Assembly (NCBI GenBank): GCA_018060955.1
Contig: JAGOVC010000002.1
Location: 1-53,061 of the forward strand
Source of the DNA: Candidatus Woesebacteria bacterium
GTDB lineage: Bacteria; Patescibacteriota; Microgenomatia; UBA1400; UBA12028
Direction: 5' to 3'
DNA: 53,061 bases
How positions within the stretch are numbered: the first letter of the stretch is position 1; each line of letters opens with the position of its first letter. Shown here one piece after another: positions 3,207 to 43,801 of this stretch. Made by a program: the position numbers and the translations under genes. The notes under the pieces are model-generated. The model had not been told where the DNA came from. It saw nothing but the letters and a program-made list of their open reading frames with translations, and made no database searches.

Positions 3207-3296
3207 GGAAGCGTCGCATAGTGGCCTAGTGCAGCGGTTTGCTAAACCGCGACCCTTAATCGGGTCTCGTGGGTTCGAATCCCACCGCTTCCGCCA
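3207..3296 (+). tRNA. tRNA-Ser (anticodon GCU)
   Basis: Acceptor GGAAGCG/CGCTTCC, anticodon loop TTGCTAA (GCT at 3241-3243), long variable arm, T arm GTGGG-TTCGAAT-CCCAC, discriminator G and encoded CCA 3294-3296. Confidence 0.9.
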
Positions 3297-5461: not shown

Positions 5462-5974
5462 ATGTCATATCCCGCGTATTCGATTTGGCTGATGCCAGAT
5501 CAAGAGTCTTCCGCAAGTATCAAGCAACTCATCGACCCCTTGAGCGTAAAGTATCACTCCCATTCGTTTGAACCACATATTACGTTGTTATCGCGAATTG
5601 GAAAAAGCGAAGGATACGTCCGGGATCGTGTGAAAGACCTATCTAAGGTGATTCATCCCTTTGAAATAGAACTAAAAGAAATTGAATACAATACGACCTA
5701 TTTTCAGTGTGTTCTTGCTCAGGTCAAGCCTACTCTAGAATTAATGGAAGCTAGAGTTCTTGCACAAGATCTCTTAGAAGCAGATAAAACGATTTTTTAT
5801 AATCCACATCTAAGTCTCTTGTATGGGGATTTTGTCTTGGAAGAACGAGAAAAAATCAGTCGACAAATCACTCTTCCCATCCACACACTTCGCATCGATA
5901 AAATTTGGATGACCCCATCTGGAGTTCGACCGGAGCAATGGGTGACCTTAGAAGAATTTGTGTTAACCCCATAA
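5462..5974 (+). CDS. 2H phosphoesterase superfamily protein (cyclic phosphodiesterase / RNA ligase-like)
   Basis: Two H-x-T/S-x motifs: PHITLL and PHLSLLYG. Confidence 0.65.
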   Translation: MSYPAYSIWLMPDQESSASIKQLIDPLSVKYHSHSFEPHITLLSRIGKSEGYVRDRVKDLSKVIHPFEIELKEIEYNTTYFQCVLAQVKPTLELMEARVLAQDLLEADKTIFYNPHLSLLYGDFVLEEREKISRQITLPIHTLRIDKIWMTPSGVRPEQWVTLEEFVLTP

Positions 5975-5985
5975 GTTTTAATCCT

Positions 5986-6465
5986 ATGAACTGGAAACTT
6001 CCTCCCCGCATTAAAATCTATGAAGCCCTTGGGTGTGTAGCCGATGAACGATTGTCGTTAACTGAGAAGGGTGCAGATGTAACATCATCGGATGGGTCAA
6101 AAACCTACACTGTTATTTTTGATGCGGAACAGAAAATGATCTGTGCAAATGATAATGGGTCATTTTGGCAAGGATATCTAGGCTATCCTGCAATCGCGTA
6201 CTTACTAAAAACGGAACTACTTTCCCTCGAGCCGGAGATCGCAGAACTGCTTTCGGGGATTGCTTGGAAGAGAATCAATCAACTCCATAAAAACGACTGG
6301 GAGAAAACAGAGGCATGGATTTATTCACAACAGCTTAGTAATGACAAAACCAAGATTCAATCGTTGGAACGTTATGCTAATAAGATTGCCCGGGCTATCG
6401 ATGCACTGTCATTGCAGCAACCCTCAAAGCGTCTTCGTCCTCCTAGCGTTAAAAAAGCTGATTAA
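5986..6465 (+). CDS. hypothetical protein
   Basis: Track ORF 5905-6465 overlaps the preceding gene. The internal ATG at 5986 (MNWKLPPRIKIYEALGC...) removes the overlap. No motif recognised. Confidence 0.4.
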   Translation: MNWKLPPRIKIYEALGCVADERLSLTEKGADVTSSDGSKTYTVIFDAEQKMICANDNGSFWQGYLGYPAIAYLLKTELLSLEPEIAELLSGIAWKRINQLHKNDWEKTEAWIYSQQLSNDKTKIQSLERYANKIARAIDALSLQQPSKRLRPPSVKKAD

Positions 6466-9709: not shown

Positions 9710-11539
9710 TTACTCTTTTTTCTTCGATGCGCGAGCGCGTTCTGCTTGTGTGAGTAATCGCTTGCGTAGTCGTAGCGTTGAGGGCACCACTTCTAACAAT
9801 TCGTCATCGGCAAGGAAGTCCAGAGACTGCTCTAAAGAGAATCGGACTGGAGGTGTCAGCTTGACCATCATGTCCTTGGTAGCGGAACGAACGTTACTAC
9901 TGGCTTTTACTTTGTTAACATTCACTTCCATGTCTTGCTCTCGTGAGTTTAAACCCACGATCATGCCCATGTATGTCTCTTCACCCACACCAATGAACAG
10001 TAGTCCACGTTGTTGGGCATTATCGAGTCCTTCCGTGGCACTCTTACCGTGCTCGGAGGCAACAAGAACACCATTGCGTAGCTGACTATATTCTGTCCCT
10101 ACTGGTCGATATTCTAAAAAGATCGAACTCATTTGTAATGTTCCACGGGTATCTGTGAGGAGTTTTGTTCGTGCACCTAAAAGATTGCGTTCGGAAATTT
10201 CAAAGATCATTCGCGTATCTCCCCGTCCATTCGGTTCGATGGATTGGGTTACAGCCCGACGTTGGCCAAACTCTGTGGTGATCACACCGACGAATTCGTC
10301 GGGGATATCTACCGTGACTTCATCGTATGGTTCAAGTTTGACTCCGTTTTCTTCTTTCAAAATAACCTGTGGTCGCGAGACTTCTAGCTCATATCCCTCT
10401 CGGCGCATGGTTTCAATCAACACAGCAAGATGAAGTTCACCACGACCAGAGACTACGAATCCGACACCTGTCGAATCTTCTTCGATCCGAAGTCCTAAGT
10501 TGGTTTCTTTTTCTTTGAGTAGGCGTTCTTGAATTTGGCGAGAAGTTAAATATTTCCCTTCACGGCCTGCAAGTGGGGAAGTATTAGGTCCAATGGTGAT
10601 TTTGATGGTCGGTTCACTGACTTTAATAGAAGGGAGAGCTTCAGGGGTGGCAGGAGCTGTTACTGTCCAACCAATTGAAAGTTCTTTCATTCCTGCAATG
10701 GCGACAATGTCACCCGAGACTGCGGTTTCTACTGGGACCTTTTCAATCCCTTTGGAGACAAACAGTTTTTCAACAGTATATGTTGCTTGATGACCGTCCT
10801 GTGTTACTAATGCAGCTCGATCTCCAGTATGCAGTGTTCCTCGAGTAATACGACCAATACACATTTTCCCTAAATACGGGTCGCGTTCTAAGGTAGAAAT
10901 CAATAACTGGAAGGGAGCTTCGTCATCTCCTCGGGCTGAAGGAACGGTTTTAAGAATCTGCTCAAAGAGAGGAAGTAAATTTCCTTCACCCATTTTCTCT
11001 TCTTCTGTGGGCAAATGATCCCAAGCTTTTCCTTCTCTGCCAATGGCATAAATGACAGGGAAATCGAGCATGGAGTCGTCATCGGCAAGATGGAGGAACA
11101 AATTTTCCACTTGATGAAGAACCGTGGAAGGCTCTGCATCTCTCTTGTCAATTTTATTAATTACAACGATTAACTTCAGTTTACGTTTGATCGCTTGTTG
11201 TAAAACAAAGCGAGTCTGTGGAAGTGGACCTTCCGCTGCATCAACCAGTAAAAGAGCTCCATCTGCCATGTTAATGATGCGCTCCACTTCACCACCAAAA
11301 TCAGCGTGACCTGGGGTGTCAATGATGTTGATCTTAATTTCTCCGTATTGAACCGCAGTGTTCTTTGCAAGAATCGTAATTCCTTTTTCTCGCTCTAAAT
11401 CATTACTATCCAAAATCGTTGTCTGCTGCATTTCTGCTTGATTGTCGCGAAAGGAATGGGTTTGTTTAAGCAGTTCGTCGACAAGGGTTGTCTTCCCGTG
11501 GTCAACGTGCGCAATGATTGCAATGTTTCGAATATCCAT
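9710..11539 (-). CDS. typA: translational GTPase TypA/BipA
   Basis: MDIRNIAIIAHVDHGKTTLVDELLKQ, DTPGHADFGGEV, NKIDK. The start is placed at ATG 11539 (AGGA about 10 nt upstream); ATG 11548 is an alternative. The track start at 11638 looks too long. Confidence 0.9.
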   Translation of the reverse strand: MDIRNIAIIAHVDHGKTTLVDELLKQTHSFRDNQAEMQQTTILDSNDLEREKGITILAKNTAVQYGEIKINIIDTPGHADFGGEVERIINMADGALLLVDAAEGPLPQTRFVLQQAIKRKLKLIVVINKIDKRDAEPSTVLHQVENLFLHLADDDSMLDFPVIYAIGREGKAWDHLPTEEEKMGEGNLLPLFEQILKTVPSARGDDEAPFQLLISTLERDPYLGKMCIGRITRGTLHTGDRAALVTQDGHQATYTVEKLFVSKGIEKVPVETAVSGDIVAIAGMKELSIGWTVTAPATPEALPSIKVSEPTIKITIGPNTSPLAGREGKYLTSRQIQERLLKEKETNLGLRIEEDSTGVGFVVSGRGELHLAVLIETMRREGYELEVSRPQVILKEENGVKLEPYDEVTVDIPDEFVGVITTEFGQRRAVTQSIEPNGRGDTRMIFEISERNLLGARTKLLTDTRGTLQMSSIFLEYRPVGTEYSQLRNGVLVASEHGKSATEGLDNAQQRGLLFIGVGEETYMGMIVGLNSREQDMEVNVNKVKASSNVRSATKDMMVKLTPPVRFSLEQSLDFLADDELLEVVPSTLRLRKRLLTQAERARASKKKE

Positions 11540-37817: not shown

Positions 37818-37892
37818 TCCCCGATGGCGCAACGGTAGCGCGGCTCGCTGTTAACGAGATGGTTCTAGGTTCGAATCCTAGTCGGGGAGCCA
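37818..37892 (+). tRNA. tRNA-Asn (anticodon GUU)
   Basis: Acceptor TCCCCGA/TCGGGGA, D arm GCGC-AACGGTA-GCGC, anticodon loop CTGTTAA (GTT 37850-37852), T arm CTAGG-TTCGAAT-CCTAG, discriminator G, encoded CCA. Confidence 0.9.
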
Positions 37893-37947: not shown

Positions 37948-40878
37948 ATGGCTTTTATATTTTCAAATGGATCAGAATATCGTAAATGGGATCTACATTT
38001 TCATACACCTTCTTCTTACGACTACAAAGACCAATCTACTACTAACCAACAAATCATAGATCAACTAACTGCAAATGAAATTCGAGTGGTTGCGATCACA
38101 GACCACAATACGATTGACTCATCTCGATTTAAAGAACTTCAAACGCTGGCAGGTGAGGCAATAACTTTCCTTCCCGGCATTGAACTATGTACTAGTTCTC
38201 GTGGCACTGACCCAATTCATATAATTGGAATTTTTCCCGAGAACAGCGATAGTGATTATGTCTGGAATCAGCTGAACGTGAAGCTTGGAATTTCAAGCAT
38301 GTTGCACGATGGTAAAAAAGAAAATGAAGTTTACTGTGATATTAAGGTTGCTTCTGAACTCATTAGATCTTTGGGTGGCTTGGTTACTATTCACGCTGGG
38401 CGAAAATCAAATTCGATTGAAGAAATCACCAATGCGTTGCCTGTAATGATGGCTGAGAAAAAGGACATAGCTGAGTGCGTAGATATTTTTGAGGTTGGAC
38501 AGGTCAAGGATGTTGAAGATTACACGGCCATTGTGTTTCCCAAAATTGGCAAGGAGTACCCATTAGTAATCTGCTCTGACAACCATGATTGTAAAACCTA
38601 TGAAGCCAAAGAAACACTTTGGATAAAAGCTGACCCCACTTTTGAAGGTTTGAAACAAATTACCTACGAACCATCACGTGCTTACGTTGGAAGTGAGCCT
38701 CCAATTCATGCGCGAGTAAGGCAAAACCCTACCAAATTTATTGAGAGTGTGAACGTCACTAAAGTTAGTAGCTATCAAGAGAATGATGGAGTTTGGTTCA
38801 AAGATGTCTCCATCTCCTTGAATTCTGAAATGGTGGCAATTATTGGTAATAAAGGAGGGGGCAAGAGTGCCATAGCCGACATCATAGGATACGTCGGGGG
38901 CGCAAAGACTGTTATTGAAACGGATGATGCTTCCTTCTTAAACGAGAAAAAGTTTAGAAAAAATGACCTCGCATGTAATTTCACTGCAACCCTCAAATGG
39001 GTAAGTGGTGACACCGATACTGAAAACCTTCAGTCACCCGAAAACCCACACACCACGGAAAAGGTGAAGTACTTACCGCAGCATTGGTTTGAAGAGCTGT
39101 GTAACGATCTCGATGGTAAGAAATTCAACGAAGAACTTGAAAAAGTCGTTTTCTCTCATCTTGATCACAGCGAAAAAATTGGCCACGATAGTTTTGCTGA
39201 GCTAATCAGAGAGAAAAGCCAAACTGCAAACCAAGAAATTGCTAAATTAAAGACACAACTCACTGACCTAAATACATTAATAGTTGAATTGTTAAAAAAA
39301 CTCCACCCTGACCATAAAAATGAACTTGAAGAAGCTATCAAACAAAAGCAACGCGAGCTTGATGCTCATAACAAGACACAGCCTGCTGAAGAACCAAAGC
39401 CTGCCGATGATAACCTCGCCACCCAAGCACTTGCTATACAAATTAACCAACTTAATACGAAGATTACTGTGCTAATAGCACAGCTACAAGAGTCTGTAGC
39501 CGCTCAAACGAGCATTAAACAAAAGCAACAAAAATTAAGTGACTTTGAAGCTGAACTAGTACATCTTCAACAAGAAGTAAAAGAACTTACAGAAACGTAC
39601 GACTTTACTGAAATAACGGGAGAGATTTTAGGCGATCCGCTTTTTCAATTCACTTACGACGAAGAAAAATTTAAAACCGCAAAAAGAAAGTTGGCAGACC
39701 AGCTAGCCATAGAGGAACAAAAACATTTTACCAATGAGGAAATAGGTCAGTTTCCCAACTTAACCCAACAACAGAAAGCTAATTACATTCAAAGAAGTAT
39801 CGTGGCGCAGCTAGAAATAGCGAACGGCGAACTGAAAGATGTTAAGAAACAACTCAGCAAACCACAGGAAAAATACCAACAGTATCTCGAAGATAAGAAA
39901 AAGTGGGAAACTGACAAGTTAAAGATTGAAGGTGCGACAACTGACCCAGCGGACGGAACACTTAACTACCTTAAAAACCAACTTGCAGCCTTAGGAAAAG
40001 TAGTTCTTGATCTACTTACCAAAAAAGAAAAGCAGCGAGTAGAACTGACACGACAAATTTTCGAGAAAAAACATCAGATCGTTATCATCTATGAATCTAT
40101 CAAACAACAAGTTGACGATGTGCTTCAGCAGGGAAAACAGAGTATTGATGGGTATAGTATTTCAGTTGATGCAGGATTCCAACTTAGCCCTTCGTTCGTA
40201 TCACATACAATAGGCCACATTAACTTACGTGCCAAAGGTTCCTACATGGAAACAGACAACGCGCGAGCTCAGATTAAAAAGCTGAGTGAGCAAAGTAACT
40301 TGCAAACCTTTGAAGAAGTGAAGACTATGGCACAGAAAATTCTAGATGACCTAGCCACAGATAACAGATCTGAGGTAGACCAAAACAACAGGCAAAGATA
40401 TTTACAAGACCAGGTTAAATCACCTGTAGAGTTTTTAGATTACTTGTTTGGCCTAGATTATTTAGCGCCTAATTACCAACTCAAGCTTGACCAAAAGAAC
40501 CTTAGCAGCTTATCCCCAGGGGAAAAAGGTGCTTTACTCTTAGTTTTCTATCTGATGTTAGACCAGGATGATATTCCTCTAGTCATAGATCAGCCTGAAG
40601 ACAATTTAGATAACGAAAGTGTTGCCAAAATACTCGTGCAGTTCATTAAGAGCGCGAAACACCGGCGGCAAATTATCATGGTCACCCACAATCCTAACTT
40701 AGCCGTGGTTGCAGATGCTGAGCAAGTAATCTACGTCAATATCGACAAAGCCGATGGAAACACCTTTAGTTTCATATCAGGATCAATTGAGAATGACGAA
40801 GTGAACAAAAAAATTGTTGATGTACTTGAAGGAACAATGCCCGCTTTTGATAAAAGGAGGCTACGTTACTTAAGGTAA
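37948..40878 (+). CDS. PHP-domain phosphoesterase fused to an SMC/Rad50-like ABC ATPase with a long coiled-coil insert (Ppl-like defence candidate)
   Basis: PHP motifs WDLHFHT (from 37996), VAITDHNT, TIHAGR, ICSDNHD. Walker A GNKGGGKS (38845-38868), about 400 aa of K/E/Q-rich coiled coil, signature LSPGEKG (40510-40530), Walker B LVIDQPED (40579-40602), H-loop MVTHNP. Confidence 0.85.
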   Translation: MAFIFSNGSEYRKWDLHFHTPSSYDYKDQSTTNQQIIDQLTANEIRVVAITDHNTIDSSRFKELQTLAGEAITFLPGIELCTSSRGTDPIHIIGIFPENSDSDYVWNQLNVKLGISSMLHDGKKENEVYCDIKVASELIRSLGGLVTIHAGRKSNSIEEITNALPVMMAEKKDIAECVDIFEVGQVKDVEDYTAIVFPKIGKEYPLVICSDNHDCKTYEAKETLWIKADPTFEGLKQITYEPSRAYVGSEPPIHARVRQNPTKFIESVNVTKVSSYQENDGVWFKDVSISLNSEMVAIIGNKGGGKSAIADIIGYVGGAKTVIETDDASFLNEKKFRKNDLACNFTATLKWVSGDTDTENLQSPENPHTTEKVKYLPQHWFEELCNDLDGKKFNEELEKVVFSHLDHSEKIGHDSFAELIREKSQTANQEIAKLKTQLTDLNTLIVELLKKLHPDHKNELEEAIKQKQRELDAHNKTQPAEEPKPADDNLATQALAIQINQLNTKITVLIAQLQESVAAQTSIKQKQQKLSDFEAELVHLQQEVKELTETYDFTEITGEILGDPLFQFTYDEEKFKTAKRKLADQLAIEEQKHFTNEEIGQFPNLTQQQKANYIQRSIVAQLEIANGELKDVKKQLSKPQEKYQQYLEDKKKWETDKLKIEGATTDPADGTLNYLKNQLAALGKVVLDLLTKKEKQRVELTRQIFEKKHQIVIIYESIKQQVDDVLQQGKQSIDGYSISVDAGFQLSPSFVSHTIGHINLRAKGSYMETDNARAQIKKLSEQSNLQTFEEVKTMAQKILDDLATDNRSEVDQNNRQRYLQDQVKSPVEFLDYLFGLDYLAPNYQLKLDQKNLSSLSPGEKGALLLVFYLMLDQDDIPLVIDQPEDNLDNESVAKILVQFIKSAKHRRQIIMVTHNPNLAVVADAEQVIYVNIDKADGNTFSFISGSIENDEVNKKIVDVLEGTMPAFDKRRLRYLR

Positions 40879-40937
40879 CCTTGTATTAACTATTGATAGG
40901 GCAAACCTAACAAAATTCTTCACATAATATTCGATGA

Positions 40938-40954
40938 AGTCCCACACGGGGAGC
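40938..40954 (+). repeat. left copy of a 17-nt direct repeat AGTCCCACACGGGGAGC
   Basis: Read directly. 16/17 identical to 43735-43751, and both copies contain a small TCCC/GGGA hairpin. Confidence 0.8.
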
Positions 40955-41042
40955 TCTGAAGACTCGAGTTTATTCTTCCCCAAGTCGATTGGTTATACCG
41001 ACTTACTTGTCCAACACTTCCATATCCGAATTCGCTCAAAAA

Positions 41043-41070
41043 TTGACGTAATGTAATTTCATAGTAAAAT
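41043..41070 (+). promoter_or_regulatory. candidate promoter of the T-box leader
   Basis: TTGACG (41043-41048), 16 nt, TAAAAT (41065-41070). Confidence 0.5.
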
Positions 41071-41093
41071 GTTATATACAAGTTAATATTAAA

Positions 41094-41436
41094 GCGTCGA
41101 CGGAAGACCAAGTAAGTCCTTAGGTGGTAACCAGAGATTCAGCGGTTGGTGAAAGCTGAACAAGCCTGAGAGAAACCGAAATACCTTCCCGAGCAGTCCA
41201 AACCAATTCTTGATTTCAAGATAGTAGCGCGGAATGGGTGTGCCCATAATAGCACTAGAGCATGTCACAAATGACACAGAGTGCTCGAACAACAAGGATA
41301 GTCTTGGTTTGTTTCGAGTCTCCCATGTAGGAGACTTTTTTGTAGGCCAAAGCTATTGAAGCACGGTGGTACCGCGTATTCCTTTTGATGAAGACGCCCG
41401 TGTATTTACTTAAACGAGTAAGTACGCGGGTTTTTT
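41094..41436 (+). promoter_or_regulatory. T-box riboswitch leader (transcription attenuation type)
   Basis: K-turn, S-turn AGUA/GAA, AG bulge AGAGA 41133-41137, distal loop GGUUGGUGAAA, Stem III-like hairpin 41316-41337, T-box sequence GGUGGUACCGCG 41365-41376. A 15-bp terminator at 41397-41430 is followed by U6, and a competing antiterminator pairing exists (41362-41365 with 41399-41402). Confidence 0.75.
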
Positions 41437-41455
41437 AGTACTTAAAAGGAGGTAT

Positions 41456-42523
41456 ATGCAACCACATGAACTAGGACGACACTTAATACGTCCCGAGCAA
41501 AGACAATTAGTGACACAAAACATCATTGATCATTGGGTAGGCCAATTAGCTCAATTACGTATCAGCGATATTCGTGAATCGATTATTAATAAACAACGGT
41601 TCATAGATTTGCTCGTGAAATCAGTACAAACACAAACGCCATTGTCATTTATTGCATTGGGTTGCCAAGACTGGGTAAAACCAGAATGGGGTGATCCACA
41701 TGTAGATCGCATAATGGGGAGGATTAATAGTAGTAACAAGCGAGCTCGACGATTCACTACTGAAGTAGCTAGTTTCAGCAGTGCACTAATCTCTCTAGGA
41801 GTTCCTCATCAAATCCACTTTACTTTATCTGATATTGAAGCATTGATTCATATTCGTCTACAGAATATGGGTCTAACAATTCACAACTCAGACGCACAAG
41901 AAGTTTTAGAAAAGAATGTCAGATTTTTAACTGAAGAATTGCAAAAACTTGGAGCTCAGGTTGTGCAGTTTACGCATAGTACTGTATTGGAAGACCTTTT
42001 TGGCACAACTAATCTGGCGGAATTACAGCAACGAATTACTGGACATCATACTGTAAAGTACAGGACATTCTTAGACAACCTATACAAAGTTGATTTAACT
42101 CAAACAGCTATTCATGTTGCTGGTGAAAACACACTAGGACCGGTTTGGTTGGATATTCAATCGTTAAATTTTACTGATGATGTTATCTCATTGGCTCAAG
42201 CTGCTCAAGAAGTTGCTCCAGATATGCCAATACTAACAATTTTCCCAAATGCCGGGAGTTGGCATGCAGGGCAACAAGCTTCAATAACTTTTCCTAAGCG
42301 TGAAGATGTTGTGGCTCAAATGTTGGGACATACAAGGACACCAGCATCGCAAAAGGAATGGAAAGATAAGGTTCATAAAACAAATGATGAAAAGCTTATT
42401 CAACTTTTACAAAAATTTGGTCAAGAAATCTCTGTTATTGATTCAGGAATGGAAAAGACATTGGCAGTTCGAGCATTTTTCCAATTGGTATTCGAGTTCG
42501 ATCCATTTGATCAATCATTATGA
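41456..42523 (+). CDS. hypothetical protein, first gene of the T-box-controlled operon
   Basis: 355-aa ORF with strong SD AAGGAGG (41446-41452). No family motif recognised by eye. Confidence 0.7.
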   Translation: MQPHELGRHLIRPEQRQLVTQNIIDHWVGQLAQLRISDIRESIINKQRFIDLLVKSVQTQTPLSFIALGCQDWVKPEWGDPHVDRIMGRINSSNKRARRFTTEVASFSSALISLGVPHQIHFTLSDIEALIHIRLQNMGLTIHNSDAQEVLEKNVRFLTEELQKLGAQVVQFTHSTVLEDLFGTTNLAELQQRITGHHTVKYRTFLDNLYKVDLTQTAIHVAGENTLGPVWLDIQSLNFTDDVISLAQAAQEVAPDMPILTIFPNAGSWHAGQQASITFPKREDVVAQMLGHTRTPASQKEWKDKVHKTNDEKLIQLLQKFGQEISVIDSGMEKTLAVRAFFQLVFEFDPFDQSL

Positions 42524-42534
42524 GAGGGAAATAT

Positions 42535-43632
42535 ATGAATACAAGTTCTATAGCTCAAGAGATTGCACTACAACTAATTGCTATTGATACCTCCAAGCAA
42601 AATGGAATCCACTCTGCAATGAATTGGATTGAAACATGGTGCAAAGCTCAAGGACTTCTAATAAAAAGAATCCCTCATACAAAAGCAATCCTAATAGAGA
42701 CACATCCTGAAGCCCAAAAGCATGTGAATTTTGTTACGCACATCGATGTAGTTCCGGCAGATGGATGGAATGAAGCATTTACTCCTCTGGTCAAAAACAA
42801 CTGTCTAATTGGTAGAGGCGCAGTTGATGACAAAGGACCATTGGCTATTTGCCTAGAGGTATTGGTAAAAGCACAACAACATTCGCACATAAATGTCTCT
42901 TGCTTGATTGTGACTGACGAAGAAACTCAAAATACAGAAATTCAAGAGATTACAAAAGCAAATACATTCCATCCTGATCTATGTATTGTTGTCGATGGAG
43001 GAACACATAAAGTCTTTGATATTGGCCAAAAAGGCATCATTCGTTTTGATGTTTCAATTCAAACGCCTGGAGGTCACAGTGCATTTGAAGAGGTAGAGAA
43101 GAGTGCAAGTATCCAGCTACTGCAATTCATCTCAGATTTAGAAAAACTTGCAATAACTTTTCCTCATCACGTTGCATTCTCAAAAACATTTATCAATGTG
43201 AGTAAAATTTCTGCAGCAACTGTTCCGTATGGTTTGCCCACTCTAGCCATAGCACATATTGAATTACAATTCGCCCCTCCGCAAACAAGTGAAGAATGGA
43301 GAAATCAAATCAATCAACTTTTGGGAAAATTTAATGAATACGAATTAAACATTCATTGGATTAGCGAACCGCACATGCTAGAAAATCAAAAATTCTTAAA
43401 CCTCCTTCATTCGTTACCGAATGTTCGGTGTGTTACCACTGGAGGTAACAATCTTGCTAAAGATCTTTGTTTGGCTGGTGTTCCAGCAGTAAGCCATTGT
43501 CCCGTTAGTGAATACATTGCCCATTGTAAAGAAGAAAAAATAAACCTAATAGATTTCAAAAAAGGTGTACACTCATACCTAAAAATAATTGAACTATTTT
43601 GCGAAAATTATGATGATTTGACAAAGAAATAG
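42535..43632 (+). CDS. M20-family metallo-amidohydrolase (ArgE/DapE/acylase-like)
   Basis: THIDVVPA, GRGAVDDKGPLA, IVTDEE. The start is ATG 42535 with GAGAGGG 6 nt upstream; ATG 42520 overlaps the upstream stop (ATGA) and is an alternative. Confidence 0.85.
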   Translation: MNTSSIAQEIALQLIAIDTSKQNGIHSAMNWIETWCKAQGLLIKRIPHTKAILIETHPEAQKHVNFVTHIDVVPADGWNEAFTPLVKNNCLIGRGAVDDKGPLAICLEVLVKAQQHSHINVSCLIVTDEETQNTEIQEITKANTFHPDLCIVVDGGTHKVFDIGQKGIIRFDVSIQTPGGHSAFEEVEKSASIQLLQFISDLEKLAITFPHHVAFSKTFINVSKISAATVPYGLPTLAIAHIELQFAPPQTSEEWRNQINQLLGKFNEYELNIHWISEPHMLENQKFLNLLHSLPNVRCVTTGGNNLAKDLCLAGVPAVSHCPVSEYIAHCKEEKINLIDFKKGVHSYLKIIELFCENYDDLTKK

Positions 43633-43734
43633 GAAAAAGCTGAAGTACTTCTAATCACTTAGAGAGATATAATTTATGCCACAATAATTCTTTTTTGAGA
43701 ACTTGGAAAAATCAAGCTGTTATCTTTCGGATTG

Positions 43735-43751
43735 AGTCCCACACTGGGAGC
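43735..43751 (+). repeat. right copy of the 17-nt direct repeat AGTCCCACACTGGGAGC
   Basis: Read directly. It lies 103 nt after the M20 stop codon. Confidence 0.8.
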
Positions 43752-43801
43752 AAAACTTTTTAGCTTCAATCTTGGAGCACCCTAGGTGGGACATCGAACC
43801 A

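Follow-up and report, generated by a model that had tools for sequence, protein, structure and literature searches.

Which tRNA is sensed by a T-box-like leader in a Candidatus Woesebacteria genome, and what could the operon behind it be for? The leader lies at 41088-41436 in a stretch of 53,061 nucleotides (GenBank assembly GCA_018060955.1, contig JAGOVC010000002.1, positions 1 to 53,061, forward strand), which was analyzed as a whole and is called the window below. An original prediction, made from the sequence alone, had described a T-box riboswitch in front of an operon of unknown function and had preferred AUA (Ile) as its specifier codon. In the present analysis, the leader is very probably a class-I transcriptional T-box riboswitch specific for tRNA-Tyr, a judgement that takes the RNA mechanism and the tyrosine specificity together. 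The riboswitch itself is a further member of the known T-box class, with the main structural features of that class. As such it is textbook biology, and the interest lies in what the regulated protein does biochemically. The analysis adds the tyrosine assignment, the placement of the orphan first gene in a family derived, by modelled fold, from tyrosyl-tRNA synthetase (TyrRS), the order of T-box and tRNA-Tyr gene in relatives, and the swap of T-box and candidate leader peptide between lineages.

The leader and its specifier codon

Positions 40950-41500 were searched with the Rfam T-box model RF00230 using an E-value threshold in place of the gathering score. The model matched at 41088-41404 on the forward strand (61.6 bits, E 5.2e-13), and the alignment ran end to end over model positions 1-219. 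The Rfam gathering score for RF00230 is 93 bits (an operational cut-off, not a structural feature). Because the window leader stays below it, the default gathering-threshold Rfam scan of the whole window reported three tRNAs only, leaving the T-box unreported. The shortfall in score is caused by three large insertions relative to the model. Real T-boxes in Patescibacteria (candidate phyla radiation, CPR) can fall under the gathering score and so stay unannotated; no publication linking T-boxes to Patescibacteria or CPR was found in a limited literature search. Every element listed in the original prediction was found where it had been placed, and the RF00230 match proposed there as a check was obtained, though under the gathering score. 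The sequence GGTGGTACCGCG was found once in the 53-kb window, against 0.05 occurrences expected within one mismatch.

The contigs of twelve members of the protein family encoded by the first gene (355 aa in the window) were examined for the same leader, whose recurrence at related loci had also been suggested as a check. RF00230 matches were found directly upstream of the gene homologues in eight other lineages: L011 (116.6 bits, the only one above the gathering score), L002 (90.4 bits), L097 (85.6 bits), L098 (81.4 bits), L003 (79 bits), L007 (68.6 bits), L099 (63.2 bits), and L001 (62.3 bits). Seven of these eight leaders were complete, and that of L098 was 3'-truncated and had no antiterminator. 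The proteins behind the T-box leaders were down to 21% identical to the window protein. Eight leaders with a full-length Stem I were used for the RNAalifold consensus of Stem I and for the specifier alignment; 22 Stem I pairs were predicted, and in 17/22 the pairing was kept through changes on both sides.

Folding of the switch covered six leaders, those aligned at that stage. When the RNA was cut before the terminator 3' arm, the minimum free energy (MFE) structure was the canonical antiterminator with a 7-nt UGGUA(C/U)C bulge (-13 to -17 kcal/mol) in 6/6 leaders, and for the full-length RNA it was the terminator, again in 6/6 (-39.6 kcal/mol for the window segment). The terminator 5' arm reuses the antiterminator 3' strands, with positions 41396-41403 common to both, and the two structures are mutually exclusive in all six leaders. 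The classical competition between antiterminator and terminator described in the original prediction was reproduced in this way, with some changes in its details. The pairing of CACG (41362-41365) with CGUG (41399-41402) lies inside helix A1, which is longer by one pair at each end, and the bulge is UGGUACC, not GUGGUAC. The 15-bp terminator given at 41397-41430 stood together with its six U residues, and its stem extends to 41396-41431. Within the bulge, UGGU (41367-41370) is the element that pairs with the tRNA 3' end ACCA. The ribosome-binding site lies outside the terminator, and control is therefore transcriptional. Taken together, these signals of a transcriptional T-box go well beyond chance expectation.

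The codon was assigned from an alignment of the specifier loops, as had been recommended. In the eight full-length leaders the loop reads GAA-N-UAC-C, where N is A, A, G, U, U, U, A, and A, and UAC is invariant; UAC is also found in the short specifier loop of L099 (AGAUACC), the ninth leader. As UAC is invariant while the preceding base varies, the specifier is UAC (Tyr), and the alignment predicts a riboswitch that reads tRNA-Tyr, not tRNA-Ile. The C that follows UAC can pair with G in six leaders and faces U in L011 and L097. Being unpairable in these two, it is the post-codon base, and the frame is UAC and then C. The ambiguity in the codon comes from the TBDB rule, which counts from the 3' end of the bulge that holds the specifier and takes bases 2-4 as the codon (PMC7778990): the rule gives AUA if the pair G41106-C41185 forms and UAC if it does not. 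The earlier preference for AUA was not borne out and UAC, its second option, was, whereas the AAU (Asn) frame would give AAU, AGU, or AUU between orthologues. Both AUA and AAU were rejected as specifiers, since the related leaders keep UAC alone.

Genes for tRNA-Tyr(GUA) with discriminator A73 were found between the T-box terminator and the TyrRS-like gene in L011 (3071-3492) and L097 (3518-3940). The UGGU of the window matches this A73, the discriminator that had been expected from UGGU. In both lineages, the tRNA sensed by the riboswitch appears to be under the control of the same riboswitch. The gene call P0008 in L011 (467 aa) runs through the tRNA-Tyr, and its real start is probably the ATG at L011 3508.

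The promoter given in the original prediction was recovered (Table 1) and was the sole promoter-like site on the forward strand upstream of the leader (scanned stretch 40850-43800); the L098 leader has TTGACT-17-TATAAT at the equivalent relative position. In the RF00230 alignment of the window, three Stem II pairs are non-canonical. The extra hairpin that follows Stem IIA/B was kept in all aligned leaders and was present in the MFE structures, and judging from the alignment it is clade-specific. The Stem III-like hairpin reported earlier at 41316-41337 is present, merely as the tip of a longer Stem III. This extended stem was seen in the MFE folds of the window, L001, L002, L003, and L099, and as a variant in L097. 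Its U-run sits in an internal loop 3' of the apical hairpin, and G-A-A (41358-41360) stands between Stem III and the antiterminator. By a published rule, Stem III is flanked by 5'-RRRxG and AA-3', and only its ends matter for function (PMC11404447). In the window, the 3' AA is present (41359-41360) and the 5' ACAAG fits RRRxG in part, and the L011 flanks fit the rule well (GAGAG-stem-AA); an extended Stem III followed by G-A-A agrees with the AA part of the rule and with the importance of the ends alone. The GC-rich apical hairpin with its run of at least five U was scored as terminator-like by the consensus scan, upstream of the real switch, and a Stem III-tip hairpin with at least five U is found at the same position in L001, L002, L003, L007, L011, L097, and L099. 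It may be a transcriptional pause site, which is a guess.

The tyrS T-box of Bacillus subtilis, the founding member of RF00230, has the same kink-turn (K-turn), S-turn specifier loop, AG bulge, distal loop, Stem II with IIA/B, and Stem III, the same UGGN antiterminator bulge and competing terminator, the specifier UAC, UGGU for A73, and a gene of the TyrRS lineage behind it. The window leader differs from it in scoring below the Rfam cut-off, in the extra hairpin, in the greatly extended Stem III with its terminator-like tip and U-run, in having C and not a purine after the codon, and in its Patescibacteria host; it also regulates a TyrRS-derived protein without recognizable HIGH/KMSKS motifs together with a hydrolase, and not tyrS itself. 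The parallel to the B. subtilis glyQS T-box drawn in the original prediction holds for the Stem I layout, the GAA-codon-N-helix-GAGC arrangement, and the antiterminator/terminator logic. It does not extend to Stem II and IIA/B, which glyQS lacks, nor to the codon register: the codon directly follows GAA in glyQS, whereas in the window one variable base stands between the two, which is how a register taken from glyQS led to AUA, an incorrect codon.

Known T-box biology and the computed structures together predict the following mechanism. Transcription would start just past the TTGACG/TAAAAT promoter, Stem I would dock the tRNA elbow on the platform of AG bulge and distal loop, and UAC would read the GUA anticodon. 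With uncharged tRNA-Tyr, the free ACCA would pair with UGGU and stabilize the antiterminator, and RNA polymerase would enter the operon. With charged tRNA-Tyr, the terminator would form and transcription would end at the U-tract.

Table 1. Features of the leader and the operon (positions in the window)
Feature	Position	Strand	Basis
Promoter-like TTGACG (-35), 16-nt spacer, TAAAAT (-10)	41043-41070	+	Consensus scan, 10/12 matches; promoter function putative
Complete T-box leader	41088-41436	+	From RF00230 match start to end of terminator U-tract
Stem I	41094-41194	+	Sequence, covariance-model alignment, RNAalifold
K-turn GC/GUC/GA opposite GA-GC	41094-41100 / 41191-41194	+	Sequence
Specifier-loop helix, GGAAG with CUUCC	41102-41106 / 41185-41189	+	Sequence
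S-turn, AGUA and GAA	41111-41114 / 41178-41180	+	Sequence
AG bulge AGAGA	41133-41137	+	Sequence
Distal hairpin, loop GGUUGGUGAAA (distal loop 41144-41154)	41138-41160	+	Sequence
Specifier codon UAC (Tyr)	41182-41184	+	After S-turn GAA 41178-41180 and variable base 41181; followed by invariant C 41185
Stem II with AGUAG S-turn-like motif, and Stem IIA/B (GGG 41236-41238 / CCC 41243-41245, then AUAA)	41196-41249	+	Covariance-model alignment, MFE fold; IIA/B pseudoknot putative
Extra hairpin AGCACU...AGUGCU enclosing GUCA/UGAC, after Stem IIA/B	41251-41285	+	Insertion relative to RF00230
Extended Stem III: basal helix 41297-41311 / 41343-41357, apical 8-bp hairpin 41316-41337, U-run 41338-41343	41297-41357	+	MFE folds
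T-box sequence GGUGGUACCGCG	41365-41376	+	Sequence
Antiterminator: A1 41361-41366 / 41398-41403; bulge UGGUACC 41367-41373; A2 41374-41377 / 41394-41397	41361-41403	+	RF00230 alignment, MFE
Intrinsic terminator: ~15-16 bp stem 41396-41431, U-tract 41431-41436	41396-41436	+	16 pairs in terminator scan
Ribosome-binding site AAGGAGG, 3 nt before ATG	41446-41452	+	Sequence
355-aa protein, short form without S4 domain	41456-42523	+	Open reading frame, AlphaFold2 model, Foldseek
370-aa M20 metallohydrolase, ArgE/DapE type	42520-43632	+	Start overlaps upstream stop by 4 nt

The regulated genes and their relatives

The first gene had been called an orphan. This stands for profile searches, as no Pfam or NCBIfam match was obtained for the 355-aa protein nor for several further family members tested, and it does not stand for structure, where Foldseek and an S4 module point to a derivation from TyrRS. 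The family comprised 8 clusters at 90% identity among 5.8 billion proteins and 40 proteins (about 40 clusters at 50% identity) in an exhaustive profile search of 1.84 billion representatives, and a metagenome scan with an 8-sequence alignment added one locus. A search with two peptide patterns found no 355-aa homologue in species-representative genomes, among which the window's own genome may be masked.

The AlphaFold2 model of the window protein (8 sequences; pLDDT 84, pTM 0.86) had TyrRS (1jil, 6byq, 1wq4, 1h3e) and TrpRS as best Foldseek matches in the PDB, followed by weaker matches to the isonitrile synthases PIsnA and PvcA. In about half of the family the C-terminus is extended by ~80 residues, and the extension gave weak Pfam S4 matches in 5/10 members tested; for P0008, Pfam searched up to E 1 gave no S4 match. 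The family profile matched S4 proteins and the whole C-terminal domain of Helicobacter pylori TyrRS (E 2.4e-4). For the long form P0011 (35 sequences, pLDDT 93.7), the top 14 Foldseek matches were all full-length bacterial TyrRS (E 1.4e-8 to 5e-7, 450-497 aligned columns), including Thermus thermophilus TyrRS bound to tRNA-Tyr. The TyrRS matches of the window protein and the long form had a Foldseek probability of 1.00. When the family was aligned with TyrRS by hhalign, the default run covered the S4 module alone (79% probability), the greedy local run extended to 316 columns (91% probability, with confidence near zero across the catalytic core), and the forced global run gave 28% probability. 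The core alignment was unreliable and was left unused for mapping HIGH, KMSKS, or tyrosine-pocket residues.

In a 36-sequence alignment of the family, the conserved motifs were GCQDW, KR..RF, SLSD.E, F.H, LY..D, WLD.QS, and NAGNW, and neither the HIGH nor the KMSKS signature was recognizable. Invariant residues are C70, close to where the first core strand ends, N265, and W269. The true TyrRS genes that adjoin some family members encode HLGH and a KMSKS-type loop (KFGKT, KMGKT, or PMSKT) and match PF00579 at 2e-55, unlike the family members. The TyrRS fold and domain order (Rossmann core, helical domain, C-terminal S4-like domain) are found in the family, the window protein being without S4. 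By modelled fold and domain architecture, the 355-aa protein is thus a TyrRS-derived paralogue, which should not be filed as TyrRS. The origin from TyrRS without recognizable catalytic signatures gives a testable lead on a new aminoacyl-tRNA synthetase (aaRS) paralogue.

In HisZ, AsnA, GluQRS/YadB, and the cyclodipeptide synthases (CDPSs), all catalytically divergent paralogues, the synthetase fold and often the amino-acid pocket are kept, and the new function, be it regulatory, biosynthetic, or tRNA-dependent, is tied to the same amino acid. None of these is known to go back to a full-length bacterial TyrRS that retained its helical and S4 domains, and no sequence-level relation of the family to any of them was found with Pfam, NCBIfam, or Foldseek. 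We know of no divergent aaRS paralogue under a cognate T-box with a peptidase partner. The isonitrile synthases PvcA and PIsnA bind tyrosine and have a TyrRS-like Rossmann fold (Foldseek 9dhm and 9dh4, E 2e-3 to 3e-2; 3e59, 0.09). They rank below TyrRS, however, no DIT1_PvcA Pfam match was obtained for the family, and PvcA and PIsnA have neither an S4 domain nor a link to tRNA or a T-box.

The product of the second gene matched Pfam Peptidase_M20 (3e-18) and M20_dimer, belonged to the NCBIfam ArgE/DapE family while staying under every equivalog cut-off, and had DapE as its nearest PDB sequence (7lgp, 3e-13). A peptidase gene comes next after the family gene in 8/10 lineages with a readable next gene: M20 in seven (the window, L001, L002, L003, L008, L009/L010/L094, and L098) and M24 in one (L011). 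Canonical TyrRS is encoded in the same gene string in L002, L011, and L098. Genes for chorismate mutase, prephenate dehydratase, an aminotransferase, and DAHP synthase stand alongside the pair in L002 and L003, in whose neighbourhoods no TyrA-type gene was seen. The original prediction had set the regulated gene apart from the usual aaRS, biosynthesis, and transport targets of T-boxes. This was overstated, as the 355-aa protein appears TyrRS-derived and its homologues share transcription units with genes for canonical TyrRS, tRNA-Tyr, and peptidases. On the same L003 contig as the T-box-controlled TyrRS-like operon, a Phe_leader-like match (RF01859, 49 bits against a cut-off of 55) lies at 10268-10386 upstream of a DAHP synthase gene.

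Two of the relative T-boxes have unusual layouts. In the L098 leader (5754-6001), Stem I (UAC), Stem II, and IIA/B are normal, and the RNA stops with the Stem III-tip hairpin and U7 immediately in front of the ATG; the UGGN discriminator element was not found in this leader, and its terminal hairpin contains the ribosome-binding site GGAG. This T-box may be truncated, or it may act in another way. The L099 leader (1-260) has an ultrashort Stem I, in which the hairpin GGAG-AGAUACC-CUCC comes after the K-turn. A similarly short Stem I is found in actinobacterial ileS T-boxes, but a transcriptional terminator is kept in L099.

No T-box was found in L008, L009, or L094, and both L008 and the L094/L009/L010 branch are without one. 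In these, the place just before the gene is taken by a short open reading frame (ORF) with many aromatic codons and, behind it, a strong terminator, with peptides such as MHFFKQYYWYF..., MHFFKQYYWYFTSNPSSLR... and ...SYLWFVKFYPSSLR... These stretches lie at L094 6810-6944, at L008 5803-5986 (and 5648-5785), and upstream of the gene in L009 and L010 (peptides MHFFKQYYWYFTSNPSSLRQFCL and ...SYLWFVKFYPSSLR...); L008 may carry two aromatic leader attenuators in tandem. The arrangement looks like the layout of leader-peptide attenuation and makes a candidate attenuator. A simple ribosome-masking fold of the aromatic leader reproduced no clear antiterminator. Two unrelated sensors of aromatic or Tyr-tRNA charging would thus control the same operon in different lineages. 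With the T-box as a functional label, and the aromatic leader peptides in the sister branch, a rare family named by no source is predicted to respond to tRNA-Tyr charging.

Readings of the operon

The operon products would be a divergent TyrRS-derived protein without recognizable HIGH/KMSKS and an M20 amidohydrolase of the ArgE/DapE type. A response to tyrosine starvation is suggested by the T-box logic together with the genes around it, and the pair is tentatively read as a module for such starvation, by which more Tyr or Tyr-tRNA-Tyr would become available; this reading falls short of an even chance. The hydrolase would release Tyr from peptides or N-acyl-Tyr, as suggested by the recurring peptidase, and the TyrRS-like protein would have Tyr or tRNA-Tyr as substrate or ligand, in a non-canonical manner. 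In CPR bacteria, whose biosynthesis is minimal, a starvation-induced pair of TyrRS-like protein and peptidase may show how an aromatic amino acid is secured. A bolder form, of rather low probability, makes the family a new kind of tRNA-Tyr-linked enzyme or regulator that supplies or loads Tyr together with the peptidase in nutritionally dependent CPR bacteria, without HIGH/KMSKS adenylation chemistry; this form includes a T-box lineage in which tRNA-Tyr genes are themselves T-box-controlled and Stem III contains a terminator-like hairpin. The protein could then be, for example, a Tyr-specific salvage or charging helper, or supply a missing Tyr-forming step. A tRNA-dependent transferase, a TyrRS-inhibitor decoy, and a missing step of Tyr biosynthesis were all rated lower than tyrosine supply. 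T-box control of non-synthetase genes tied to the charging of the sensed tRNA has a precedent in the rtpA-ycbK (anti-TRAP) operon of B. subtilis, initially also of unknown function (PMC2494555), where the amino acid concerned is Trp and the encoded proteins have no relation to those of the window; for about 8% of T-boxes, the function of the gene behind is unknown or unrelated (Wels et al. 2008, PMC2494555).

Several points count against a tyrosine-sensing switch that serves tyrosine supply. The leader scores 61.6 bits, below the cut-off of 93, and antitermination by uncharged tRNA-Tyr is a computational prediction. The base 3' of the codon is C41185, and C in all eight full-length leaders, whereas a purine stands 3' of the specifier in every glycyl T-box examined (PMC11404447); the invariant C is a clade-typical deviation, the purine being a conserved tendency and not a defining T-box feature. 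There is no tRNA-Tyr gene in the window, where the tRNA genes are two copies of tRNA-Ser and one tRNA-Asn, and the match between UGGU and the discriminator is seen in relatives alone. As L097 and L099 have no adjacent peptidase, the partnership with a hydrolase is not universal. The catalytic core resembles TyrRS by fold alone (TM 0.25-0.41), in a region where the profile alignment is unreliable, and binding of Tyr or tRNA-Tyr by the TyrRS-like protein is probable at best. Induction by uncharged tRNA-Tyr also fits several different functions.

At the level of the RNA, the sub-threshold score, the large insertions, the three non-canonical Stem II pairs, and the pyrimidine after the codon could be taken as signs of a decayed or chance T-box-like sequence without regulatory role. 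This is hard to reconcile with the E-value and end-to-end alignment, with the compensatory changes in leaders upstream of genes for proteins down to 21% identity, and with a switch intact in 6/6 leaders, and it is very improbable. Equally improbable is a leader that reads AUA or AAU and senses tRNA-Ile2 or the tRNA-Asn encoded 3.5 kb upstream. The TBDB rule yields AUA if G41106-C41185 forms, and a tRNA-Asn(GUU) gene is indeed present at 37818-37892. The variable base, however, would turn these codons into AUA/GUA/UUA or AAU/AGU/AUU, which specify different amino acids, while UAC is unchanged, the unpairable C of L011 and L097 fixes the UAC frame, and the gene context points to Tyr throughout. 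In bacteria, the discriminator of tRNA-Asn is normally G73, and its pairing with UGGU would be by wobble alone.

At the level of the proteins, the T-box can be accepted and another role given to the operon. The TyrRS-like protein may be an enzyme that uses tRNA-Tyr or Tyr-tRNA-Tyr, with the peptidase processing its product or substrate; it could be a CDPS-like aminoacyl transferase that relies on the invariant Cys, or an enzyme that modifies or loads tRNA-Tyr. This is considered unlikely. It is in keeping with the retained helical domain (anticodon-binding in TyrRS), with the S4 domain of the long forms, which in TyrRS binds the long variable arm of tRNA-Tyr, with the tRNA-Tyr gene co-transcribed immediately upstream in L011 and L097, and with C70; CDPSs are themselves class-Ic-derived enzymes without HIGH and KMSKS. 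The window protein has no S4 domain, however, and at low charging the induction of an enzyme that consumes Tyr-tRNA would be self-defeating. No CDPS structure was among the top 50 Foldseek matches and no CDPS Pfam match was obtained, and a CDPS identity is not supported, for lack of a fold or profile match in these searches. Less likely still is an immunity module against TyrRS inhibitors: inhibition of TyrRS would leave tRNA-Tyr uncharged and induce the operon, a TyrRS-like decoy would bind the inhibitor, and the hydrolase would cleave aminoacyl-nucleotide mimics. A TyrRS fold without recognizable catalytic motifs would suit a decoy, the hydrolase is not always of the same type (M20, M24, or M20 with an HD protein), some operons contain an extra canonical TyrRS, and the window operon adjoins a defence-type gene in a stretch of low G+C; some antibiotic-resistant aaRS copies are T-box regulated, which offers an analogy. 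On the other hand, the operon has no linked genes for an inhibitor, a transporter, or an acetyltransferase, and PADLOC gave no match for its genes. Aromatic biosynthesis genes and aromatic leader peptides fit nutrition better, and a true loss of the adenylate-binding motifs would make a decoy for adenylate mimics less plausible. Tyrosine supply remains the preferred reading at its tentative level.

Neighbourhood of the operon

The defence-type gene that the original prediction had noted upstream of the leader encodes a 976-aa protein (37948-40878) with an N-terminal PHP domain, identified as a TrlF-family AAA-like ATPase (NCBIfam, 633 bits) and related to anti-phage Ppl (PADLOC, 1.7e-32). It directly follows the tRNA-Asn gene. 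The G+C content drops from ~0.46 to 0.37-0.40 around the operon, and the 976-aa gene and the low-G+C stretch may form a small island. The accessory region proposed earlier is weakly supported by the low G+C and the nearby tRNA-Asn, whereas elsewhere the window carries core chromosomal genes (TypA, Ddl, UvrC, DnaG, RpoD, RTPR, PNPase). A defence role for the two operon genes was rejected, given the absence of a PADLOC defence match for either.

The tRNA-Ser genes lie at 837-926 and 3207-3296, and ARAGORN gave ACT as the anticodon of one of them. A34 in bacteria is normally confined to tRNA-Arg, which makes this anticodon unusual. The PNPase of the window is 98% identical to that of one metagenome-assembled genome (MAG) and 79-84% identical to those of MAGs labelled Woesebacteria, Cerribacteria, or Patescibacteria, which places the host in the Patescibacteria (CPR) and probably in the Microgenomates/Woesebacteria-like group. 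Many MAGs with PNPase 57-98% identical are titled 'uncultured Pseudomonadales bacterium', and these look like wrong or placeholder labels.

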